Assembly (NCBI GenBank): GCA_964396845.1
Contig: CAYNGH010000005.1
Coordinates: 1 to 52,815 of the forward strand
DNA from: an uncultured bacterium
GTDB taxonomy: Bacteria; Vulcanimicrobiota; JAJTBE01; CAYNGH01
Direction of reading: 5' to 3'
Length of the DNA: 52,815 bases
Under the pieces are notes generated by a model, which was not told the origin of the DNA, ran no database searches, and was given only the letters and a program-made list of their open reading frames with translations. Position 1 is the first letter of the stretch. Every line of letters begins with the position of its first letter. Made by a program: the position numbers and the translations under genes. This document shows, piece after piece, positions 3,534 to 12,556 of this stretch.

Positions 3534-4961
3534 ATGGCAAATATCAATGTCCTGTCCCAACGTTATGCCAGCCCCGAGATGAATCATATCTTTTCCCCTG
3601 TCAACAGAATCATCCAGGAGCGATGTCTGTGGCTTATGATAATGGAGATACAGGGCGAGCTGGGGGTCACCGTGAATGACCGGGACATTCAACGATTCAG
3701 GTCTGCAGTGGAAAAAGTGAATTTGGACAGAATCCAGGAGATAGAAACAGTCACCAGGCACGATGTAAAGGCCCGGCTTGAAGCATTCATCGAAGAAGCC
3801 GGAGGCAGTGGCCCAGTGCATCTGGGGCTTACCAGCAGGGACATCACCGACAATGTAGAGCAGATGCTGATCCGGCAGGCCGGGAAATTAATATTGGGAA
3901 GATTCACTGCAGTATTGCAGGGGATGCTTCATCTGGCCGGCAGATACCAGAACCTGGTCATCACAGGGCGAACCCATCACCAGCCGGCCCAGCCCACAAC
4001 TCTGGGACGAAGATTTGCCCAGTGGGGAGAGGAGCTTCATTTCCACCTGCTGGAATTTGAAAACTTCCTCAACAACTATCCCCTTCGAGGAATCAAAGGC
4101 CCCCTGGGAACCTGTCACGATCAGTCTTCAATACTGGGTGGGAAAGACAAGGTTCGGCTGATGGAAAGACAGCTCAGCTCCCGGCTGGGGTTTAAAAACA
4201 TAATGGAAGCAGTGGGGCAGGTTTATTTTCGTTCCCTGGATTATAAACTGGCAGGGCATATCCAGACCCTGACAGCTCCCTGCGTGAGCATGGCCCAGTC
4301 CATCCGGCTGATGGCGGGACTGGGACTTGCCGGTGAAGGTTTCGGAGAAAATCAGACAGGCTCATCAGCAATGCCCCACAAAAAAAACTGCCGAACCAGT
4401 GAAAGGGTTTGGGGGATGGGAAACCTCATTAAAATGTTCACCACGGGCCTTGGTTCTGTTTCCGGAGGCCAGTGGGAAGAAGGAGATGTTTCCTGTTCGG
4501 TGATCCGACGGGTGATAATCCCTGATCTGTTCTATACCGCCGATGGCCTGTGCCGGGGAGTCCTGACCATTTTGAACGAATTTCAGCCCCATATCTCTGC
4601 CATCGAGGAAGAACTTCAGCATCACCTGCCCTTCCTTGCCACCACTGAAATCTTGACCATGGCGGTAAAAGCCGGAATAAACCGGGAAGAAGCCCACAGT
4701 ATCATCAGGAAAGCTGCCACCAGCCTGAATCCTTCAGATGACAGTCCCGGAAAGACCTCAGCCCTGGCCTCCCTGCTTTCCAGGAATCCGGTCTTTACAG
4801 AAAAAGAAATAACCGGGGAAATGATTGATGGAGTAATCTCTGAATCCCGACACAACATCGGTCTTGCCCTGGAACAAGTTCAAGGGGTCATCGATATGAC
4901 TGAACCTTTTCTTCTACGGCATCAGCATTCTGCCAGATACCACCCCGGCAGTATTCTGTGA
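3534..4961 (+). CDS. purB: Adenylosuccinate lyase
   Basis: RYAS, TRHDV, HLGLTSRD, GRTH.QPAQPTT and signature GSSAMPHKKN. AAGGAG RBS. Confidence 0.95.
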   Translation: MANINVLSQRYASPEMNHIFSPVNRIIQERCLWLMIMEIQGELGVTVNDRDIQRFRSAVEKVNLDRIQEIETVTRHDVKARLEAFIEEAGGSGPVHLGLTSRDITDNVEQMLIRQAGKLILGRFTAVLQGMLHLAGRYQNLVITGRTHHQPAQPTTLGRRFAQWGEELHFHLLEFENFLNNYPLRGIKGPLGTCHDQSSILGGKDKVRLMERQLSSRLGFKNIMEAVGQVYFRSLDYKLAGHIQTLTAPCVSMAQSIRLMAGLGLAGEGFGENQTGSSAMPHKKNCRTSERVWGMGNLIKMFTTGLGSVSGGQWEEGDVSCSVIRRVIIPDLFYTADGLCRGVLTILNEFQPHISAIEEELQHHLPFLATTEILTMAVKAGINREEAHSIIRKAATSLNPSDDSPGKTSALASLLSRNPVFTEKEITGEMIDGVISESRHNIGLALEQVQGVIDMTEPFLLRHQHSARYHPGSIL

Positions 4962-5177
4962 TCTTTTTCTGATGTCATCAACAGGCAGGAATTTTGATCA
5001 TTTTTCTATAAATCATTTCCACACTAAAGGATTATTTGTTTATACAAAGAATATGACCCAGAATTTTTTTAAAATATCTTATTATGATCACAAGAGTGAA
5101 TCAACTGTGACTCAAGCAATGGAAAATAATGTGGGGTAACTTGGGTTTGGGGGTATTATGGCAAGAGGAGAAAAAGG

Positions 5178-7196
5178 GTGATAAACAAAGAAAAACCAAA
5201 GATAATCCACGTTGATAACGACCCGGAATTTCTTGATATTTTTTCTGCAACTTTTTCCCGTTGGTTCGACATAACCTCGGTGAGGTCCAGCGAAGCAGCT
5301 TTGGAAAAACTCAAGAGAGATTGTTATCAATGCATCATCACTGACTATGACATGCCGGGCATGGACGGCATTGAACTGCTGTGGGAAACAAAACAGTTCA
5401 ATACTCGACTGCCGGTCATATTTTTCACAGGCCAGGGCAACGAACAGGTTGCCAGGGAAGCCTTTGTTCTGGGCGCTTCCGATTATTTTACCAAAGATTT
5501 CTACGGGCCTGCCGCCACGGAAAAACTTGTCAATTCCATCAACAACCTGATCGAAAAGAACAAGGTTGTTGATGCCCTGGAAAAATCCCAAGAAATCTAC
5601 AGAACAATCTTTGAAACTGCCTGCAGTGCCATGTTTATTATCGAAGAAGACTCCACCATCAGTCTGGTCAACAAGACCTTTGTCAGAATGTGCGGATATG
5701 CCAGGGAAGAAGTGGAAAACAGAATGAAGTGGCAGGAGTTCATACATCCCCAGGACTTGCCCCTCATGAAGGATTACTTCCATCGACGGCTTTCTGAACC
5801 TGACAAGGTACCCAACAATTACGAGTGTCGGGTAAAAAGCAGGGATGGACGGATTCTGCACATATACAGCACTGTATCGATGGTCCCTGGAACCCGGCGG
5901 AGGGTTGTATCATGGCTGGACATCACTCCCCAGAAAGAATCCGAAGATGCCCGCCAGGAAAGTGAAATCCGCTTTGGCACTGTCTTTGACACAGTAACCG
6001 ATTCTATTTTTATAAAGGATCTTGACGGCCGATACAAGCAGGTGAACCTGGCATTTTCCCGGCTCTATGGCATCCCCAAGAAAGAACTGATCAACCGTAC
6101 CGATGACGACATATTCAATGTCAACGGTGGAAAAGAAATCAAGAAAACTGATCAGCTGGTAAAAGAAGGAAAAATTGTTAACGAAGAACATACCATCTCT
6201 ATAAATAACAAGCTGGTTACTTTGCATGTTGTAAAGGTTCCAGTCCGGGATCGGGACGGCAATATTAATGGCATCTGCGGTATCGCCAGGGATATTACTC
6301 ATCGCAAGCAGGCAGAAGAAGAACTGCGAAGGCAAAAAGACATCCTCACCAATATCATCTCCAATATCCCTCATTTTGTATTCTGGAAAGACAGACACTC
6401 GGTATTTATGGGATGCAACGAAAACCTCGCCAGGGTAGCCGGCCTGGACAGTGCCGACGACATAATCGGCCTGACGGATTTTGATCTGCCCTTGACCAGG
6501 GAAGAATCTGAACATTATGTCAAATGTGACAAGGAGGTCATGGAGTCGGGAAAGCCGATGCTCAATATTGAAGAAACCCAGCTCCAGGCCGATGGACGAA
6601 AGGCAGTTCTTATGACCAGCAAGGTTCCCATGAGAGATTCCCAAGGGAACATCATCGGGATAATGGGGATTTATTCGGATATCACAAGTATCAAAAAGAT
6701 GGAAGTACAGCTTCAGAAAAGCAAAGACAGATATCGCAACATGCTGGATTCCCTGGCGGACTTTGTTCATGTGGTGGACAGGAACCTCCGGCTTGTTAAT
6801 TGTAACAGGGCAGTCACCGACTACCTGTCAAAAAACGGCTTTTCTCCAGAATCAATCAACGGAGAGGATATATTCAAGCTGTTTCCATTTCTTACCCCAC
6901 AAGTTAAAGACGAATACCTTGAAGTCCTCAACACCGGAAAACCCCTGGTCACAGAAGAAAAATCCCTCATCGATGACCGGGAAATCTGGACTGAAACCAG
7001 GAAAGTACCTATCCGTGACAGTGGCGACCAGATCAGCAATGTGGTAACTATAATTCACGACGTGACCAGAAGAAAAAATACCGAGCAGTCCCTGCGTTGC
7101 CAGCTGGATAAACTTATGAGCCAACAGGAGTACGACAACAGCAGGATCCTGGTATCTGAAGCTCCCCATAAGTCCATGATTAAATCAGACATTTAA
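5178..7196 (+). CDS. Response regulator: REC + four PAS/PAC domains, no output domain
   Basis: REC with VDND, phosphoacceptor TDYDMPGMDG, FTG and DYFTK. Four PAS repeats end in LDIT, RDIT, SDIT and HDVT. A short tail follows, with no HisKA, GGDEF or HTH. Confidence 0.88.
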   Translation: MINKEKPKIIHVDNDPEFLDIFSATFSRWFDITSVRSSEAALEKLKRDCYQCIITDYDMPGMDGIELLWETKQFNTRLPVIFFTGQGNEQVAREAFVLGASDYFTKDFYGPAATEKLVNSINNLIEKNKVVDALEKSQEIYRTIFETACSAMFIIEEDSTISLVNKTFVRMCGYAREEVENRMKWQEFIHPQDLPLMKDYFHRRLSEPDKVPNNYECRVKSRDGRILHIYSTVSMVPGTRRRVVSWLDITPQKESEDARQESEIRFGTVFDTVTDSIFIKDLDGRYKQVNLAFSRLYGIPKKELINRTDDDIFNVNGGKEIKKTDQLVKEGKIVNEEHTISINNKLVTLHVVKVPVRDRDGNINGICGIARDITHRKQAEEELRRQKDILTNIISNIPHFVFWKDRHSVFMGCNENLARVAGLDSADDIIGLTDFDLPLTREESEHYVKCDKEVMESGKPMLNIEETQLQADGRKAVLMTSKVPMRDSQGNIIGIMGIYSDITSIKKMEVQLQKSKDRYRNMLDSLADFVHVVDRNLRLVNCNRAVTDYLSKNGFSPESINGEDIFKLFPFLTPQVKDEYLEVLNTGKPLVTEEKSLIDDREIWTETRKVPIRDSGDQISNVVTIIHDVTRRKNTEQSLRCQLDKLMSQQEYDNSRILVSEAPHKSMIKSDI

Positions 7197-7273
7197 CAGG
7201 ATATATCAGGCAAGGCCTATAAATTTCATTACATACTTATATTCTTATTTACATTATTGTAACATAAACACTA

Positions 7274-7302
7274 TTTACAACTGCACAGAGATCCCTTATA
7301 AT
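7274..7302 (+). promoter_or_regulatory. Sigma70/SigA-type promoter of the small peptide gene
   Basis: TTTACA (7274-7279), a 17 bp spacer, then TATAAT (7297-7302), in AT-rich context. Confidence 0.75.
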
Positions 7303-7351
7303 AAATTTAATAAAAGTTAATCCACAAACTCAAAAAAAGGGAGGCGAGAAG

Positions 7352-7432
7352 ATGTATCTCGACAAAGAACAGATAACCTGCGAGGAAATCCACGGAATGT
7401 ATGTAATTCCCCCGGATGACGGCGGAATCTAA
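7352..7432 (+). CDS. Small 26-aa peptide MYLDKEQITCEEIHGMYVIPPDDGGI (candidate RiPP precursor)
   Basis: Below the ORF-track cutoff. AAGGGAGG RBS lies just upstream of ATG 7352, TAA is at 7430-7432, and it is bracketed by a promoter and a terminator. Confidence 0.75.
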   Translation: MYLDKEQITCEEIHGMYVIPPDDGGI

Positions 7433-7448
7433 AACTAAAATGCAAACC

Positions 7449-7477
7449 AAAAGGCCGGCCAAGAGCCGGTCTTTTTT
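7449..7477 (+). terminator. Intrinsic terminator after the small peptide gene; may also serve the convergent esterase gene
   Basis: AAAAGGCCGGC-CAAGA-GCCGGTCTTTT hairpin ending in a T-run. Confidence 0.8.
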
Positions 7478-7607
7478 ATAACTGCTGAAGCAGTTGCTAT
7501 ATCAAAAAAATTTCAGAAACCACTCAAAATCCGTTTCATTGTTGTCAGGATAGAATAAATTCAGGGATCCTCCCTCACGAGTATCAATCAAGGGCCTTTC
7601 GGGAGAG

Positions 7608-8573
7608 TTATCTTGAATGTTTTTTAAAAAACTCCCAGATGGTTCTGCATCCGTCAATTTCTCTGCTGGTTCTGCCTATTATCTTCTCAGGAAGGTATTG
7701 CTTACCGCCGGGCCATGTGTGTCCGCCTCCGATAATTTTATACAGCACCACTTCCGAGCCGTCTTTTCCCCCGGTATATTCATACTTTTCCAGGGTTGTA
7801 CCGTCGGCGGGGTCTTTATCCGGCATTCTGGTTACATCCGGCGGGAAACTGCATCCGTTGTGCTTTGCCCAAAATTCCGCCGTGGCAGGGGTTGACATAA
7901 CCCTGCCCAGCCTGATCTTTTTTATTCCAATTTCTCCTCCGCCATAAGGAACCATCGGGTCTTCAGTGCCGTTTATAATAATCACCGGCATAGGCAGTGA
8001 GGGTTTCTTTTTCGATGCAATCTCTTCCCCCATGGAGCTTATCACCGGGCCGATGGCGGAAATCTTCCGGGGAGCTTCCAGGGCCAGGCGGTATGACATC
8101 AGAGCGCCGTTGGAAGCCCCGGTGGAATAGACTCGACGAGGATCCACCCTGTGTTCCTTTACCATTCTGTCGATGAGAGCACTCAGAAAACCCACATCAT
8201 CAACACCTTCCCTGTGAGCCTTATAGCGCTGGATTCCCCGGCCATCGTTCCATCTTTTTTCCACAGCATCGGGATACACCACAATAAAGCCATCCCGGTC
8301 TGCCAACTTTTCAAAGCCCATCCTGGTGAGCCTGATCATCCCCCGGCCAGTCCCTCCGCCTCCGTGAAGCACAAGAACCATTGGAACCACGCTTTCCTCT
8401 GGTTTTCTGTCAGGTAAATATACCAGATATGTTCTATCACGGCCCTGCCATTTTATCGACCCTGGATAATGTTTTCCCGGTCTGGCAACCTGGGCCACGA
8501 CAATGATGGAAACCGCCAGGGCAAGGCTCAGCGTCAAAATTGTTACTATAAAGAAGGTTTTTCTTCGATTCAT
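7608..8573 (-). CDS. Secreted PHB-depolymerase/LpqC-like alpha/beta-hydrolase (esterase)
   Basis: Signal peptide, LHGGGG oxyanion motif, DDVGF, nucleophile GASNG, GTEDP and GGGHTWPG. Confidence 0.9.
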   Translation of the reverse strand: MNRRKTFFIVTILTLSLALAVSIIVVAQVARPGKHYPGSIKWQGRDRTYLVYLPDRKPEESVVPMVLVLHGGGGTGRGMIRLTRMGFEKLADRDGFIVVYPDAVEKRWNDGRGIQRYKAHREGVDDVGFLSALIDRMVKEHRVDPRRVYSTGASNGALMSYRLALEAPRKISAIGPVISSMGEEIASKKKPSLPMPVIIINGTEDPMVPYGGGEIGIKKIRLGRVMSTPATAEFWAKHNGCSFPPDVTRMPDKDPADGTTLEKYEYTGGKDGSEVVLYKIIGGGHTWPGGKQYLPEKIIGRTSREIDGCRTIWEFFKKHSR

Positions 8574-8886
8574 AGGATCACTCCCGGAAACACCGGCAGG
8601 GCCACCGCCGATGATGACCTGAAATTATTCTGGGCAGTCAGGAATAATCTATATAATTATTCTTTCATGAAAAATTTCTCTTTAAAATAATTAATCCTTT
8701 AAGAAAAAGCCCGGCGGGAGCAGGGCATCTTGAATCATCATTCTCGAAGGCAAAAATTCCAAAAACCGCTATAAAGGTTCATCGTCATAACCTGTCAAAG
8801 TAAACCCTGTTATTCATTCCCTGGAATTCAAGTCTGAAGGATTAAAAACCATATTTCTGTGGGGCTTATCACTTGAGAATATCAGG

Positions 8887-10137
8887 ATGCATATGAACAG
8901 GCTTTTTAAAAACAAGCGATTTCTTTTCTTCTGGCTGGGCCAGACCATATCAGGCATCGGCAACTGGATTAACTTTGTGGGGCTGAACCTGTATGTCCTG
9001 GAAATTTTCGGTGGCGGGGGCATTTTAGGGATGTTCCTGATGGCCCGGATGCTCCCATCGGTATTATTCGGCAGTTTCGGGGGATACCTGGCAGATCGGG
9101 CAAACCGCCGGAATGTCATGATCGCATGCGACCTGTTGCGGGCTGTTATTGTACTGGGATTTCTCATTACCCGCAATATCTACATCTTTTTCCTCCTGGG
9201 AATGCTCCTCTCAGCCCTGGACAAGGTGTTCATATCTGCCAGGGGATCTTTTCTCCCGGAAATAGTCGAACCCGATGATCTTTTAGAAGCAAACGGCATA
9301 AAGGGAATGACCACATCGGTCATCACCATCATCGGCCCTGCGGTGGGTGCAGTTTTAGTCAGCGTCTTCACATACCGGCTGATTTTCATCATCGACTCCC
9401 TGACCTTTGTTGCATCGGTGCTGTGCCTTCTCCTCATCCCCATAAGCCGGCAGACCACAGAAAAGAGGCCCCCATCCCGGGGGATTTTCCGGGAGTTTGT
9501 GGATGAATACCGCACAACCTTTATATTCCTCGGGGGACATCGGCCTCTGTTGTTCCTGATGATGCTCCGTTTCATCGATGCAGTGGGAAGCGGTGCATAC
9601 AACATCGCCCTGCCGATTTTTTCCCGCACTTTCACCAGCCTTGATCTTCCATGGGTATCCCTGGCCCTCAAGGGAGGTTCTGCATATGGATGGCTGGTGG
9701 GGATATGGGCTTTGGGGCAGTTTGCCGGGTCATATGCTGCCCGATGGGTGAGCAGAAGGTTCAGCATAACCCGGGAGAACCTGTTCAGCATCTCTATAAC
9801 CCTTATGGCCGTCGGAATGGGACTGACTTTTCAATCCTGGGGGATTTTGTGGTCCCTGGGGTTCATTTTCTTAGGCGGTGTGGGGGACGGCATATCCACG
9901 GTGGTTTTCGTGACCATGCTTATGAAGGATTCTCCCGACAAGGTCCGGGGAAAGGTATTCGGCACCATAATGTCCCTGATATTCACCGCGGTGGCAACGG
10001 GAATGCTGGCCGGCGGTTGGCTGGCGGATTATTATCCCCTGTCCAAGATAACCATGGGAGCATCCCTGGCCATTATCATCGGGGTAATCCTGGGCAGATT
10101 CTACTTTTTCTACCGGCATAAATCCCCGGCAGGTTAA
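8887..10137 (+). CDS. MFS transporter (macrolide/peptide efflux-like)
   Basis: About 12 TMs, FWLGQTIS, motif A GGYLADRANRR, and RGKVFG. Confidence 0.92.
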   Translation: MHMNRLFKNKRFLFFWLGQTISGIGNWINFVGLNLYVLEIFGGGGILGMFLMARMLPSVLFGSFGGYLADRANRRNVMIACDLLRAVIVLGFLITRNIYIFFLLGMLLSALDKVFISARGSFLPEIVEPDDLLEANGIKGMTTSVITIIGPAVGAVLVSVFTYRLIFIIDSLTFVASVLCLLLIPISRQTTEKRPPSRGIFREFVDEYRTTFIFLGGHRPLLFLMMLRFIDAVGSGAYNIALPIFSRTFTSLDLPWVSLALKGGSAYGWLVGIWALGQFAGSYAARWVSRRFSITRENLFSISITLMAVGMGLTFQSWGILWSLGFIFLGGVGDGISTVVFVTMLMKDSPDKVRGKVFGTIMSLIFTAVATGMLAGGWLADYYPLSKITMGASLAIIIGVILGRFYFFYRHKSPAG

Positions 10138-10193
10138 TGACATATGACTTGTAGAATATGGTAAACTGATATTGTTCCAAAAAGGAGTCAGAA

Positions 10194-11234
10194 ATGGAGA
10201 AATTTCCTTACAATCCAAAAGTGGCAGGCTGGGAGCTTACCCTGGCCTGCAACATGAACTGCATTCACTGCGGTTCTTCTGCAGGCAAACCCCGGCCCGA
10301 CGAACTCTCCCGGGAAGAAGGGCTGGATCTCATAGATCAGCTGATTGATTTGGGATTAAAAGTCATGACCCTGTCGGGAGGCGAACCCCTGTTGAATCCC
10401 CATCTCGAAGACTACGCCCGGCGTCTTTCCGCTGGAGGCGTTGACACATACATGATTTCCAACGGCCTCCTTCTGGAAAGAAACGCCAGGATGCTGAAGG
10501 ATGCAGGAGTCCGGCGGGTGGGAATAAGCCTTGACGGTATGGAGAAAACTCACAACTTCATCAGGAATCATCCCAATTCCTTCGCCATAGCCATGGAGGG
10601 AATCGAAGCAGCCCACAGGGCAGGAGTAATACCCGGCGCTGTCACCCACATATCCAGGGCCAATATCGAAGAGATGGAAGACATGTATCAGCTGTTTAAA
10701 AAAATTCGTCTTAATTTCTGGCAGATCCAGATAACATTCAACATGGGCAGAATGAAAGACCACAGCGACTTTGCCCTTGACCCGGCGGAGCTTCCCCGGA
10801 TTGCCAGGTTTGTTCACCAAAAACAGCAATTAAATAACGGCCCGAATGTTGTACCTGGAGATAACTTAGGTTACTATGGAAAACTGCCCATCAGGGAGAA
10901 AGCATGGAAGGGCTGTTTTGCCGGCAGGCATCTGGTGGGGATTGACGCTGACGGCGCTGTAAAAGGATGCCTTTCCCTGCCCAGGGAATTCATTGAAGGA
11001 AATATCCGGGAAGAACCCCTGAGGGTCATATGGGAAGATGTGAACCGGTTCAAGTATAACCGCTACTTCGAAACCGGAGATCTCGCCGGCAACTGCCGGG
11101 ACTGCCCCAGGGGAGATCCCTGCCGGGCCGGGTGCGTGGTGACTGCGTATTCCGCCACAGGGAACCGATTTGACAACCCGTACTGCCTTTACCGGGTTGA
11201 AAAAATGGACTGCGCCGGAGGAGGATGTTCTTGA
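10194..11234 (+). CDS. Radical SAM/SPASM peptide maturase (splicease-like family)
   Basis: CNMNCIHC, GGEP, SLDG, and SPASM CFAG...GC...CRDC...C.AGC...C. The WELTLAC..GS.AG, WQIQIT..MG and PGDNLGYYG segments recall GDL/nif11-class-3 maturases. Confidence 0.9.
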   Translation: MEKFPYNPKVAGWELTLACNMNCIHCGSSAGKPRPDELSREEGLDLIDQLIDLGLKVMTLSGGEPLLNPHLEDYARRLSAGGVDTYMISNGLLLERNARMLKDAGVRRVGISLDGMEKTHNFIRNHPNSFAIAMEGIEAAHRAGVIPGAVTHISRANIEEMEDMYQLFKKIRLNFWQIQITFNMGRMKDHSDFALDPAELPRIARFVHQKQQLNNGPNVVPGDNLGYYGKLPIREKAWKGCFAGRHLVGIDADGAVKGCLSLPREFIEGNIREEPLRVIWEDVNRFKYNRYFETGDLAGNCRDCPRGDPCRAGCVVTAYSATGNRFDNPYCLYRVEKMDCAGGGCS

Positions 11235-12556
11235 TCATCAATGCTCTGAAAAAAGCCTCCCTCAGGTATCATTCCCGCCTTTCAAGCATCAAGGGAGTCC
11301 CCTGCGCCCTGCTGGAGCTGAAAAACGCTCCCACCAGCTCCATGCTTCTATGCTTCCGGGACGGGGTGGCATACGAAGATGAAGATGAATGGGGAATCTC
11401 ACATTTCATCGAGCATATACTTTTCCGGGGCAACAAGGCATACCCTTCCCTCTACCAGATCAGTCACCGGGCCGAAAGCCTGGGAGGACGTATCTCGGCC
11501 TTTTCAACCCGGGACGGGGTATATTTCTGGATGAAGGCTCCGCCGGGGATGGAAAAAGAGATGACAGACCTGCTGGGAAATCTCCTGACCACCCCGGAGC
11601 TGAGGGATGAGTTCATCGAGAAAGAAAGACAGATAATTATCCAGGAACGGCAACGGGAGATAAACAACCCGTCGCTGTTCACCTCGCTTCTATTGGAAGA
11701 AACCCTCCTCTCACCCCGGCCCATCTGCCGGCATCCCATCGGCAGTACACAGGTGATTGACGCTCTGGATTCAGCAAGCCTCAAAAACCGCCTTGACAAA
11801 GTTTATCACCGGGATAATCTCATGGTATGCGTAGCTGGCTCAATTTCCGAAGACATCACAAAACATATTGAAGAACTTATCGGGAAGTTTCCCGGGGGCA
11901 GTCCACCCCGGCAGGCAGAATTCGAAGTGTTGCCCGATTACTCGTCCCACCGGTATTTTCTCCGGGAGTCCCCTCACAAAAGCCAGGTTTTCCTTTCCCT
12001 GGGCTGGCCCATCACCCTTGATGATGACCGAGAAATATATCCCCTGCGGGTCCTCAATTCACTTCTGGGCGCGGGATATACCAGCTCTTTCAACCGTGTC
12101 CTGCGGGAAGAAAAAAACCTGACATACCTTTGCACCACAGGGCTGAACCTTTATGGAAACCATGGCGTTTACAAGGTGAACATGGCCCTTGCTGATTCAA
12201 ATCTAAAGCCTGCCCTTGAACTTGTCCACGAGATAATCGAAGACACAGGGGAAGGTAAAATCACTGGTGAACAAATGGATCTGGCCCGGATAAAGCACGC
12301 CTCTCACCTGATCTTCAAGATGGAAGACAGCCTGGAGGCATCCCGGATTCTCTCCCAGCGCCTGATGCGGGAAGGAAACCTGTTTTGCCTTCAAGATTAT
12401 ATTAAAACCATCACAGAGGTAACCGCAGAGGATGTGTCGGGAATCTGCCGGAAGAAACTTCCCCATGATAAATGCCGGGTAGTCATCCAGACCGGTTCCT
12501 CCAAGATCCAGAATCACGAATCCATGGGGATTGCTCTGCCGGTCCGAACCATATAA
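11225..12556 (+). CDS. M16 family zinc peptidase
   Basis: Inverted zincin HFIEH, EKERQIIIQE, and C-domain LREEKNLTY. Overlaps the rSAM stop by 10 nt. Confidence 0.92.
   Translation: MFLIINALKKASLRYHSRLSSIKGVPCALLELKNAPTSSMLLCFRDGVAYEDEDEWGISHFIEHILFRGNKAYPSLYQISHRAESLGGRISAFSTRDGVYFWMKAPPGMEKEMTDLLGNLLTTPELRDEFIEKERQIIIQERQREINNPSLFTSLLLEETLLSPRPICRHPIGSTQVIDALDSASLKNRLDKVYHRDNLMVCVAGSISEDITKHIEELIGKFPGGSPPRQAEFEVLPDYSSHRYFLRESPHKSQVFLSLGWPITLDDDREIYPLRVLNSLLGAGYTSSFNRVLREEKNLTYLCTTGLNLYGNHGVYKVNMALADSNLKPALELVHEIIEDTGEGKITGEQMDLARIKHASHLIFKMEDSLEASRILSQRLMREGNLFCLQDYIKTITEVTAEDVSGICRKKLPHDKCRVVIQTGSSKIQNHESMGIALPVRTI

Follow-up and report, generated by a model that had tools for sequence, protein, structure and literature searches.

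An open reading frame (ORF) of 26 amino acids at positions 7352-7432 of a 52,815-nt contig from an uncultured Vulcanimicrobiota bacterium (contig CAYNGH010000005.1 of GenBank assembly GCA_964396845.1; this whole stretch is hereafter called the window) probably encodes the precursor peptide of a pathway for a ribosomally made peptide that is modified after translation (RiPP). The pathway is predicted to be run by the operon at 8887-12556, which contains the genes of a major facilitator superfamily (MFS) exporter, a radical S-adenosylmethionine (rSAM) enzyme with a SPASM domain, and an M16 peptidase. The expression cassette of the peptide gene and the genes of the operon are as follows:

7274-7302, plus strand: sigma-70-type promoter, with the -35 hexamer TTTACA at 7274-7279, a 17-nt spacer, and the -10 hexamer TATAAT at 7297-7302
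7337-7344, plus strand: ribosome-binding site (RBS) AAGGGAGG, with a spacing of 7 nt to the ATG
7352-7432, plus strand: putative gene of the 26-aa precursor peptide, stop codon TAA included, with the conserved core E11-E12-I13-H14-G15-x-Y17-V18-x-P20-P21-D22
7449-7477, no strand given: intrinsic terminator, with an 11-bp stem (7449-7459 and 7465-7475), a 5-nt loop, and a T-run at 7472-7477
8887-10137, plus strand: MFS exporter (MFS_1/MFS_3, EntS/Mef-like; Pfam/NCBIfam), the first gene of the operon
10194-11234, plus strand: rSAM/SPASM enzyme of 346 aa, with CX3CX2C and a complete seven-Cys SPASM motif and without an N-terminal RiPP recognition element (RRE) domain
11225-12556, plus strand: M16B zinc peptidase of 443 aa, with an intact HFIEH motif, overlapping the end of the rSAM gene, stop codon included, by 10 nt

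The promoter, RBS, 26-aa ORF, and hairpin/T-run terminator that our first-pass annotation had described are all in the sequence, the ORF exactly as written. The promoter matches the consensus at 11 of 12 positions and is the top-ranked site in a promoter and terminator scan of the region between 5 and 13 kb; its -10 hexamer ends 49 nt before the ATG of the ORF. When both strands of the 52.8-kb window were searched for TTGACA-N17-TATAAT with at most one mismatch, the promoter at 7274 was the single match (expected number 0.19; at least one match in 16 of 100 shuffles). The terminator has a GC core (7453-7459 and 7465-7471) and a minimum free energy of -17.4 kcal/mol (z = -2.9), an equally good fold being obtained in 1 of 200 shuffles; its distance from the stop codon is 16 nt to the A-extended stem and 20 nt to the GC core. 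In the closest relative, the same TTTACA-17-TATAAT promoter, ORF, and terminator align, and the differences within the ORF fall mainly on third codon positions. The search of Rfam gave no meaningful match in 6800-9000 (best match UnaL2, E = 0.69). As classes, the promoter-like and terminator-like sites of the scanned region were not enriched over shuffles. Therefore, the expression signals alone are suggestive only, and conservation is decisive.

Homologous peptides were collected from the relatives, from a sample of 401 genomes of the window's phylum, and from two collection scans, giving 36 different sequences of 22-34 aa. A tblastn-type search with the single sequence located the peptide in 19 of 41 relatives at E < 0.01, and a profile built from 20 peptides had matches in 28 of the 401 genomes. 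The pattern used for the collection scans, [EC][ED]IH[GA][MI]Y[VI]xP, was taken from an 8-row alignment and misses many variants, and the 11 and 7 loci that it returned are lower bounds. The core motif of the family is E-(E/D)-I-H-G-x-Y-(V/I)-x-P-P-D; when all 36 peptides are included, it widens to (E/C/N)-(E/D)-(I/V)-H-(G/A/S)-x-Y-(V/I/L/M)-x-P-P-(D/P), from which only a Tyr14/Cys17 variant of one genus and a few Pro substitutions depart. Two types of N-terminus occur, MYLDxE... and MFWNExE..., and the tails at the C-terminus are variable.

In 190 pairwise comparisons among 20 sequences, limited to the first 22 codons, the mean proportion of nonsynonymous differences (pN) was 0.19, and that of synonymous differences (pS) was 0.80. 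The conserved Gly15 is encoded by all 4 Gly codons, and the conserved Pro20 by all 4 Pro codons. The low pN, the high pS, and the varied synonymous codons therefore reveal selection on the amino-acid sequence, not on RNA, that is to say, the peptide ORF is under purifying selection. The surroundings of the gene are also conserved: (i) an RBS of the GGAGG type lies at the same spacing ahead of nearly all homologs; (ii) a hairpin followed by a T-run, judged by eye, lies 3' of the peptide gene in 16 of the 19 homologs examined, even where the operon is directly downstream; and (iii) 7 of 21 homologs have an upstream promoter that agrees with the consensus at 11 or more of 12 positions, and 5 others have a perfect TATAAT 30-40 nt upstream. 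Tandem peptide genes also occur, with 3 copies in genome G034 and at locus L052 and 2-3 copies in genomes G012, G018, and G037. We regard the ORF at 7352-7432 as almost certainly a real, translated gene. The micropeptide gene proposed in the first-pass annotation is thus borne out at the protein level by the search of the relatives, the phylum profile, and the pN and pS values.

None of the Pfam and NCBIfam models matches any of 20 peptides scanned, even at E-values up to 10. A collection of about 15 billion predicted proteins does not contain the exact peptide of the window; of 10 family members checked against the same collection, 8 are missing, and JGI/IMG had called the other 2 but given them no name. 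The peptide family is unannotated, and gene callers mostly skip such genes.

The link between the peptide and the operon was examined in the same 401 genomes, with a threshold of 48% identity for rSAM orthologs. Matches to the rSAM enzyme of 48-100% identity (E <= 3.6e-95) were found in 18 genomes, the weakest being a partial gene. The remaining matches, which have at most 45% identity (E >= 2.2e-88), are considered paralogs because they often occur in the same genome as a match of 48% or more. The peptide is present in all 18 genomes with an rSAM ortholog, in one of them as a fragment where the contig ends. The 373 genomes that gave no peptide match contain no rSAM ortholog, their best matches being paralogs of at most 45% identity. 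In 10 of these 18 genomes, the peptide and rSAM genes share a strand and the peptide gene lies 165-1526 nt upstream, and in G003, G081, and G099 parts of the cluster are located at contig ends, consistent with a broken cluster. The proposal that the peptide is the precursor for the rSAM/M16/MFS operon, which was made before any of these genomes was compared, is supported by the complete co-occurrence and by the position directly upstream in at least 10 genomes.

Pfam and tblastn analyses of the loci bear out the gene order peptide-(MFS)-rSAM-M16-(VOC)-(SDR). An MFS ortholog lies between the peptide and rSAM genes in most clusters, and the M16 gene follows the rSAM gene in nearly all of them and remains beside the peptide gene in a genus without the rSAM enzyme. 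Downstream there are often genes for a 122-aa protein of the vicinal oxygen chelate (VOC)/glyoxalase fold (at least 12 loci) and for a short-chain dehydrogenase/reductase (SDR; at least 10 loci), both of which are absent in the window and in its closest relative. Of 4 loci titled Elusimicrobia, 3 have the same cluster, which places it in two phyla. It is also present at 3 of 7 metagenome loci, the others either stopping at contig ends or holding unlinked tandem copies of the peptide gene. The record titles of the named carrier loci are Eremiobacteraeota, Vulcanimicrobiota, Xenobia, and Elusimicrobia, and 2 loci are labelled Bacillota and Chloroflexota by their submitters. Among 301 genomes sampled from the phylum of one Elusimicrobia carrier, the peptide was present in only 1, which is that carrier itself; therefore, the family is rare and patchy.

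In a tree of the rSAM enzymes, the enzymes split by the N-terminal type of their peptides with a single change (support 89/98), and the Elusimicrobia enzymes nest within the MYLD-type clade. The label of G099 in this tree comes from a truncated match and related genomes share labels, so the split is a matter of consistency, not of independent co-evolution. The tree indicates that the putative peptide-enzyme cluster transfers as a unit.

Several observations weigh against the assignment of the peptide to this operon. The peptide and rSAM genes are unlinked in 4 of the 18 genomes (G002, G012, G018, and G055), and in the window itself the peptide gene stands apart from the operon, the gap between the peptide and rSAM genes being 2.8 kb owing to an esterase gene. 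The 48% threshold for orthologs was chosen after the gap in the scores was seen, and related genomes are non-independent observations. No RRE, that is, a PqqD-like domain or protein, was found by Pfam scans of neighbouring proteins of 90 aa or more. The absence of an RRE is unusual but not disqualifying for rSAM RiPP enzymes; excerpts of a review put the RiPP classes without an RRE at about half (PMC11002830). In addition, the rSAM ortholog is missing from 10 of the 28 genomes with a peptide match, and the peptide can therefore persist without the enzyme. Nine of these carriers belong to one genus, and the tenth is a genome of only 69% completeness; one of the nine retains His14 and Tyr17 in a peptide encoded beside MFS and iron-containing alcohol dehydrogenase (Fe-ADH) genes.

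The other 8 genomes of that genus (loci L030 and L063-L069) carry the variant ...EEIYGVC(L)(I/V)PPDEWY, that is, Tyr14/Cys17. The variant peptide gene is followed by the genes of an M16 peptidase (33-35% identity to that of the window) and of a secreted 402-aa protein that belongs to no Pfam family and has a weak BNR/sialidase-like match in the Atlas (0.92, a lead only). Every assessable peptide from the rSAM-bearing genomes has kept His14 and Tyr17, and the sole lineage in which both residues are changed is the one without the rSAM enzyme. This pattern fits His14 and Tyr17 as putative rSAM targets, although it is weak evidence because it reflects a single evolutionary event.

The gap in the window and the outer flanks of the system are occupied by the following genes:

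5178-7196, plus strand: response-regulator/PAS protein (Pfam/NCBIfam)
7608-8573, minus strand: esterase of the PHB-depolymerase family (NF050058, 159 bits; cut-off 150), in convergent orientation to the peptide gene
from 12514, minus strand: AddA/AddB-like helicase-nucleases (Pfam/NCBIfam)

The esterase gene is found at this position neither in the closest relative nor in any of the other clusters. The esterase, which is of the extracellular type, is an apparent insertion that splits the peptide gene from the operon and is not part of the predicted system. The peptide gene is monocistronic in the window genome because the esterase gene was inserted between it and the operon. The terminator at 7449-7477 has an A-run on its upstream side and was placed on the minus strand by the scan; therefore, it can also end the convergent esterase gene, which probably shares it as a bidirectional terminator.

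Some loci have other arrangements of these genes. At L036 (G002), the rSAM ortholog is separated from the MFS and M16 genes and flanked by a Tn5-like transposase and a Ser/Thr kinase, and the G002 enzyme groups in the tree with a family other than the one expected from its taxonomy, suggesting that it was transferred inside the phylum. At L023 and L046 (G005) and at L057, a 376-aa multi-pass membrane protein of no Pfam family is encoded between the rSAM and M16 genes. The metagenome locus L052 contains 3 tandem peptide genes (4831-5225) just downstream of an M50 protease gene (RseP-like, with PDZ), with no operon within 5 kb. In the Xenobia-type loci L031 (G012), L032 (G018), and L033 (G037), the peptide genes lie directly beside serpin genes (PF00079); there are 2-3 copies, all ending in Gly-Cys, and the MFS-rSAM-M16 operon is located on another contig. 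The serpin neighbours may hint at a protease-related role. The ORF of locus L050, on a 2.9-kb contig with the title Hyphomicrobiaceae, has no more than the EEIHGMYV-PP core in common with the family (E = 1.7e-4). Its tail differs, and the contig has no cluster genes; the match may reflect chance, remote relationship, or a binning error.

The CX3CX2C motif and the seven-Cys SPASM motif are invariant across the 18 rSAM orthologs. The rSAM core of the window enzyme begins at about residue 10, with no N-terminal extension. Its AlphaFold model (pLDDT 87) has a fold that matches SkfB, BlsE, PqqE, SuiB, CteB, and anSME with TM-scores ranging from 0.64 to 0.73; a Foldseek search of the PDB with this model returned the generic SPASM maturase fold only, and PqqE (6c8v) was the only full-length PDB sequence match. 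In the ESM Atlas, only generic rSAM/SPASM clusters were found, and among 5.8 billion proteins the orthologs (at least 46% identity) form about 68 clusters with generic names only. For all 18 orthologs, the top NCBIfam match is TIGR04103 ('nif11-class peptide radical SAM maturase 3'), in every case below the cut-off; the window enzyme scores 239 bits against a cut-off of 725, followed by TIGR03913 with 215 against 592. We take TIGR04103 to correspond to IPR026482. In excerpts of a review, IPR026482 is the class given for the splicease PlpX (PMC11002830). The window genome also encodes a paralogous rSAM enzyme (G000:C55, 42% identity), which we considered as a further part of the system and rejected: it has no peptide homolog beside it and its neighbours are different. 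At its locus (L073, 6974-11686), its gene is followed by 2 prolipoprotein diacylglyceryl transferase (Lgt) genes, a receiver domain, and a B12-binding rSAM enzyme, in a separate cluster.

We propose the following pathway. The expression signals, from which the first-pass annotation had also drawn its reading of high expression, suggest an abundant short transcript, which would yield the 26-aa acidic peptide. The RRE-less rSAM/SPASM enzyme would bind this peptide directly, probably through the conserved N-terminal MYLDxE or MFWNExE segment, and would modify the invariant core I-H-G-x-Y-(V/I)-x-P-P, most likely by a radical cross-link or rearrangement at His14 and/or Tyr17. The modified peptide would be trimmed by the M16 peptidase, whose HFIEH motif is intact, and the product would be exported by the EntS/Mef-like MFS protein. 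The VOC protein and the SDR, which are encoded in many relatives, may be tailoring enzymes or may shield the producing cell from the product. The likely targets are His14 and Tyr17, and a cross-link or rearrangement there is our best guess. The peptide family has no conserved Lys, Arg, or Trp. Cys is absent from 6 of the 36 peptides, 4 of which (in G008, G071, G077, and G085) are encoded directly upstream of the operon; thus, a thioether of the sactipeptide or ranthipeptide type is not the family-wide reaction, because Cys-free members stand beside the operon.

Comparison with known systems revealed partial likenesses only. The candidate system resembles that of pyrroloquinoline quinone (PQQ; PqqA, PqqE, and PqqF/G) in its very short precursor, which is conserved from end to end and contains acidic and Tyr residues, in its SPASM rSAM enzyme, and in the M16 peptidase of the cluster. 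It differs from the PQQ system in that (i) Pfam scans of the neighbours revealed no PqqB, PqqC, or PqqD; (ii) an MFS exporter is present; (iii) the Tyr is followed by (V/I)-x-P-P; and (iv) the window proteins score far below the cut-offs, with 84 bits against 381 for TIGR02109 (PqqE) and 25 against 320 for TIGR02110 (PqqF). Mycofactocin (MftA/MftC) likewise has an acidic precursor of about 30 aa and a SPASM rSAM enzyme, and its systems travel with dehydrogenases such as the SDR and Fe-ADH encoded nearby in some relatives of the window. The mycofactocin precursor, however, ends in Val-Tyr, whereas the Tyr is internal in all 36 peptides of the present family; moreover, the score for TIGR03962 (MftC) is 117 bits against 265, an exporter is present, and no homolog of MftB, MftD, MftE, or MftF was found in the neighbours.

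These likenesses bear on an alternative in which the same enzymes make a different end product, namely, a small molecule derived from the peptide, like PQQ or mycofactocin, that serves as a cofactor or as an exported redox or metal-binding compound. Here, the rSAM enzyme would cross-link side chains of the E-I-H-G-x-Y core, the M16 peptidase would digest the rest, and the VOC protein and SDR would finish the molecule. The PQQ-like layout of a tiny, fully conserved precursor with an RRE-less SPASM enzyme whose PDB match is PqqE and an M16 peptidase speaks for such a product, as do the lack of hypervariability in the peptide core, the recurrent VOC and SDR genes, and the Fe-ADH gene beside the peptide gene in one rSAM-less genome. 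We nevertheless consider both this end product and this route unlikely: in addition to the low family scores and the missing Pqq and Mft partners, the dedicated exporter points to a secreted product, and the window and its closest relative have neither VOC nor SDR. Furthermore, Ile13 is preceded by Glu or Asp, and this acidic residue stands X4 from the Tyr, not X3, which is presumably the Glu-to-Tyr spacing of PqqA.

A further likeness is to sactipeptides of the subtilosin type, in which a SPASM rSAM enzyme occurs with one or more M16 peptidases and a short precursor. The subtilosin cluster combines the rSAM enzyme AlbA with the M16 peptidases AlbE and AlbF. Its thioether chemistry needs Cys, which sets it apart from the window family with its Cys-free members. 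A structure paper on AlbEF is cited in PMC10885120.

The first-pass annotation had seen in the MYVIPP segment a resemblance to the splice sites of spliceotide precursors (the substrates of PlpX, RhaX, and RcsX). In favour of this, the core has a conserved Tyr, and binary splicease systems without an RRE protein are described in parts of PMC11414181. The characterized spliceases covered by passages of PMC11414181 and PMC11626197 act at X-Y-G, whereas the residue after the conserved Tyr of the window family is V, I, L, or M, and never Gly, in 36 of 36 peptides. In addition, the precursor of 22-34 aa has no Nif11 or NHLP leader, and the cluster contains M16 and MFS genes. The resemblance thus fails at its defining site, and the favourable point on the enzyme side, the top match to TIGR04103, lies far below the cut-off. 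SPASM rSAM enzymes are also described, in excerpts of a review (PMC11002830), as cross-linking the side chains of His and Tyr to nearby C-beta atoms, for example, in dynobactin, with a C-N link between His and Tyr, and in triceptides, which contain three-residue cyclophanes. The H-G-x and Y-(V/I)-x segments of the window family fit the aromatic-X-X pattern of triceptides, but no family-level match to the dynobactin or triceptide enzymes is among the NCBIfam hits listed. As judged from sequence, the closest system is PQQ by architecture and the TIGR04103/TIGR03913 peptide maturases by enzyme; the window system is a member of none of these families, because every family score falls far short of its cut-off and the accessory genes are different.

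The peptide could also be a real small protein that is not a substrate, either a stand-alone regulatory or metal-binding peptide or an activator of the rSAM enzyme like the Y proteins of the cyanobacterial spliceases, which are small helper proteins according to parts of PMC11414181. Its persistence in the 10 genomes without an rSAM ortholog would agree with such a role, and its His, Cys, Asp, and Glu residues could bind metal. We nevertheless judge this explanation to be quite improbable: the tightly packed clusters showed no second conserved small ORF that might serve as substrate, the tandem copies with sequence variants are typical of substrates, and 26 residues are far fewer than in a PqqD-like domain. 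The stand-alone regulatory or Cys/His metal-binding peptide, which had been named as an alternative at the outset, is further weakened by the Cys-free peptides and by the tight link to the enzymes. The last alternative is attenuation of the downstream operon, with the ORF acting as a translated leader peptide or the region as an RNA element. It can draw on the terminator that separates peptide gene and operon in most clusters but is scarcely credible given the conserved amino-acid sequence with its saturated synonymous sites, the separation of the gene from the operon in the window, G002, G012, G018, and G055, the tandem copies, and the absence of any Rfam match with an E-value below 0.69.

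Returning to the RiPP precursor, we found no description of a peptide/rSAM/M16/MFS system in the literature, although a paper in a subscription journal or a supplement might list the cluster; passages of an ocean-microbiome paper on the biosynthetic gene clusters of Eremiobacterota (PMC9259500) mention neither SPASM nor M16. New here is a predicted precursor family for an rSAM RiPP pathway without an RRE. It gives a candidate substrate to an orphan rSAM/SPASM enzyme family and defines a precursor family for which there is no Pfam or NCBIfam model, in a compact pathway of 3-4 genes and a 26-aa substrate. The case also suggests that a real RiPP precursor can be found from expression signals alone, as it was in the first-pass annotation.

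We put forward, tentatively and with some doubt, that the system represents an undescribed RiPP class of uncultivated Eremiobacterota and a small Elusimicrobia clade, in which a precursor of 22-34 aa, conserved from end to end, would be modified at its His-Gly-x-Tyr-(Val/Ile)-x-Pro-Pro core by an RRE-less SPASM rSAM enzyme through a reaction unseen in rSAM RiPPs, trimmed by the M16 peptidase, and exported by the MFS protein. If so, the near-invariant core would imply a conserved target, and the product could be a protease inhibitor, in line with the serpin neighbours, a metallophore, or a signal. Because the source phyla are almost without cultured members, the family may offer a route to new radical chemistry on His and Tyr and to a new secreted metabolite.

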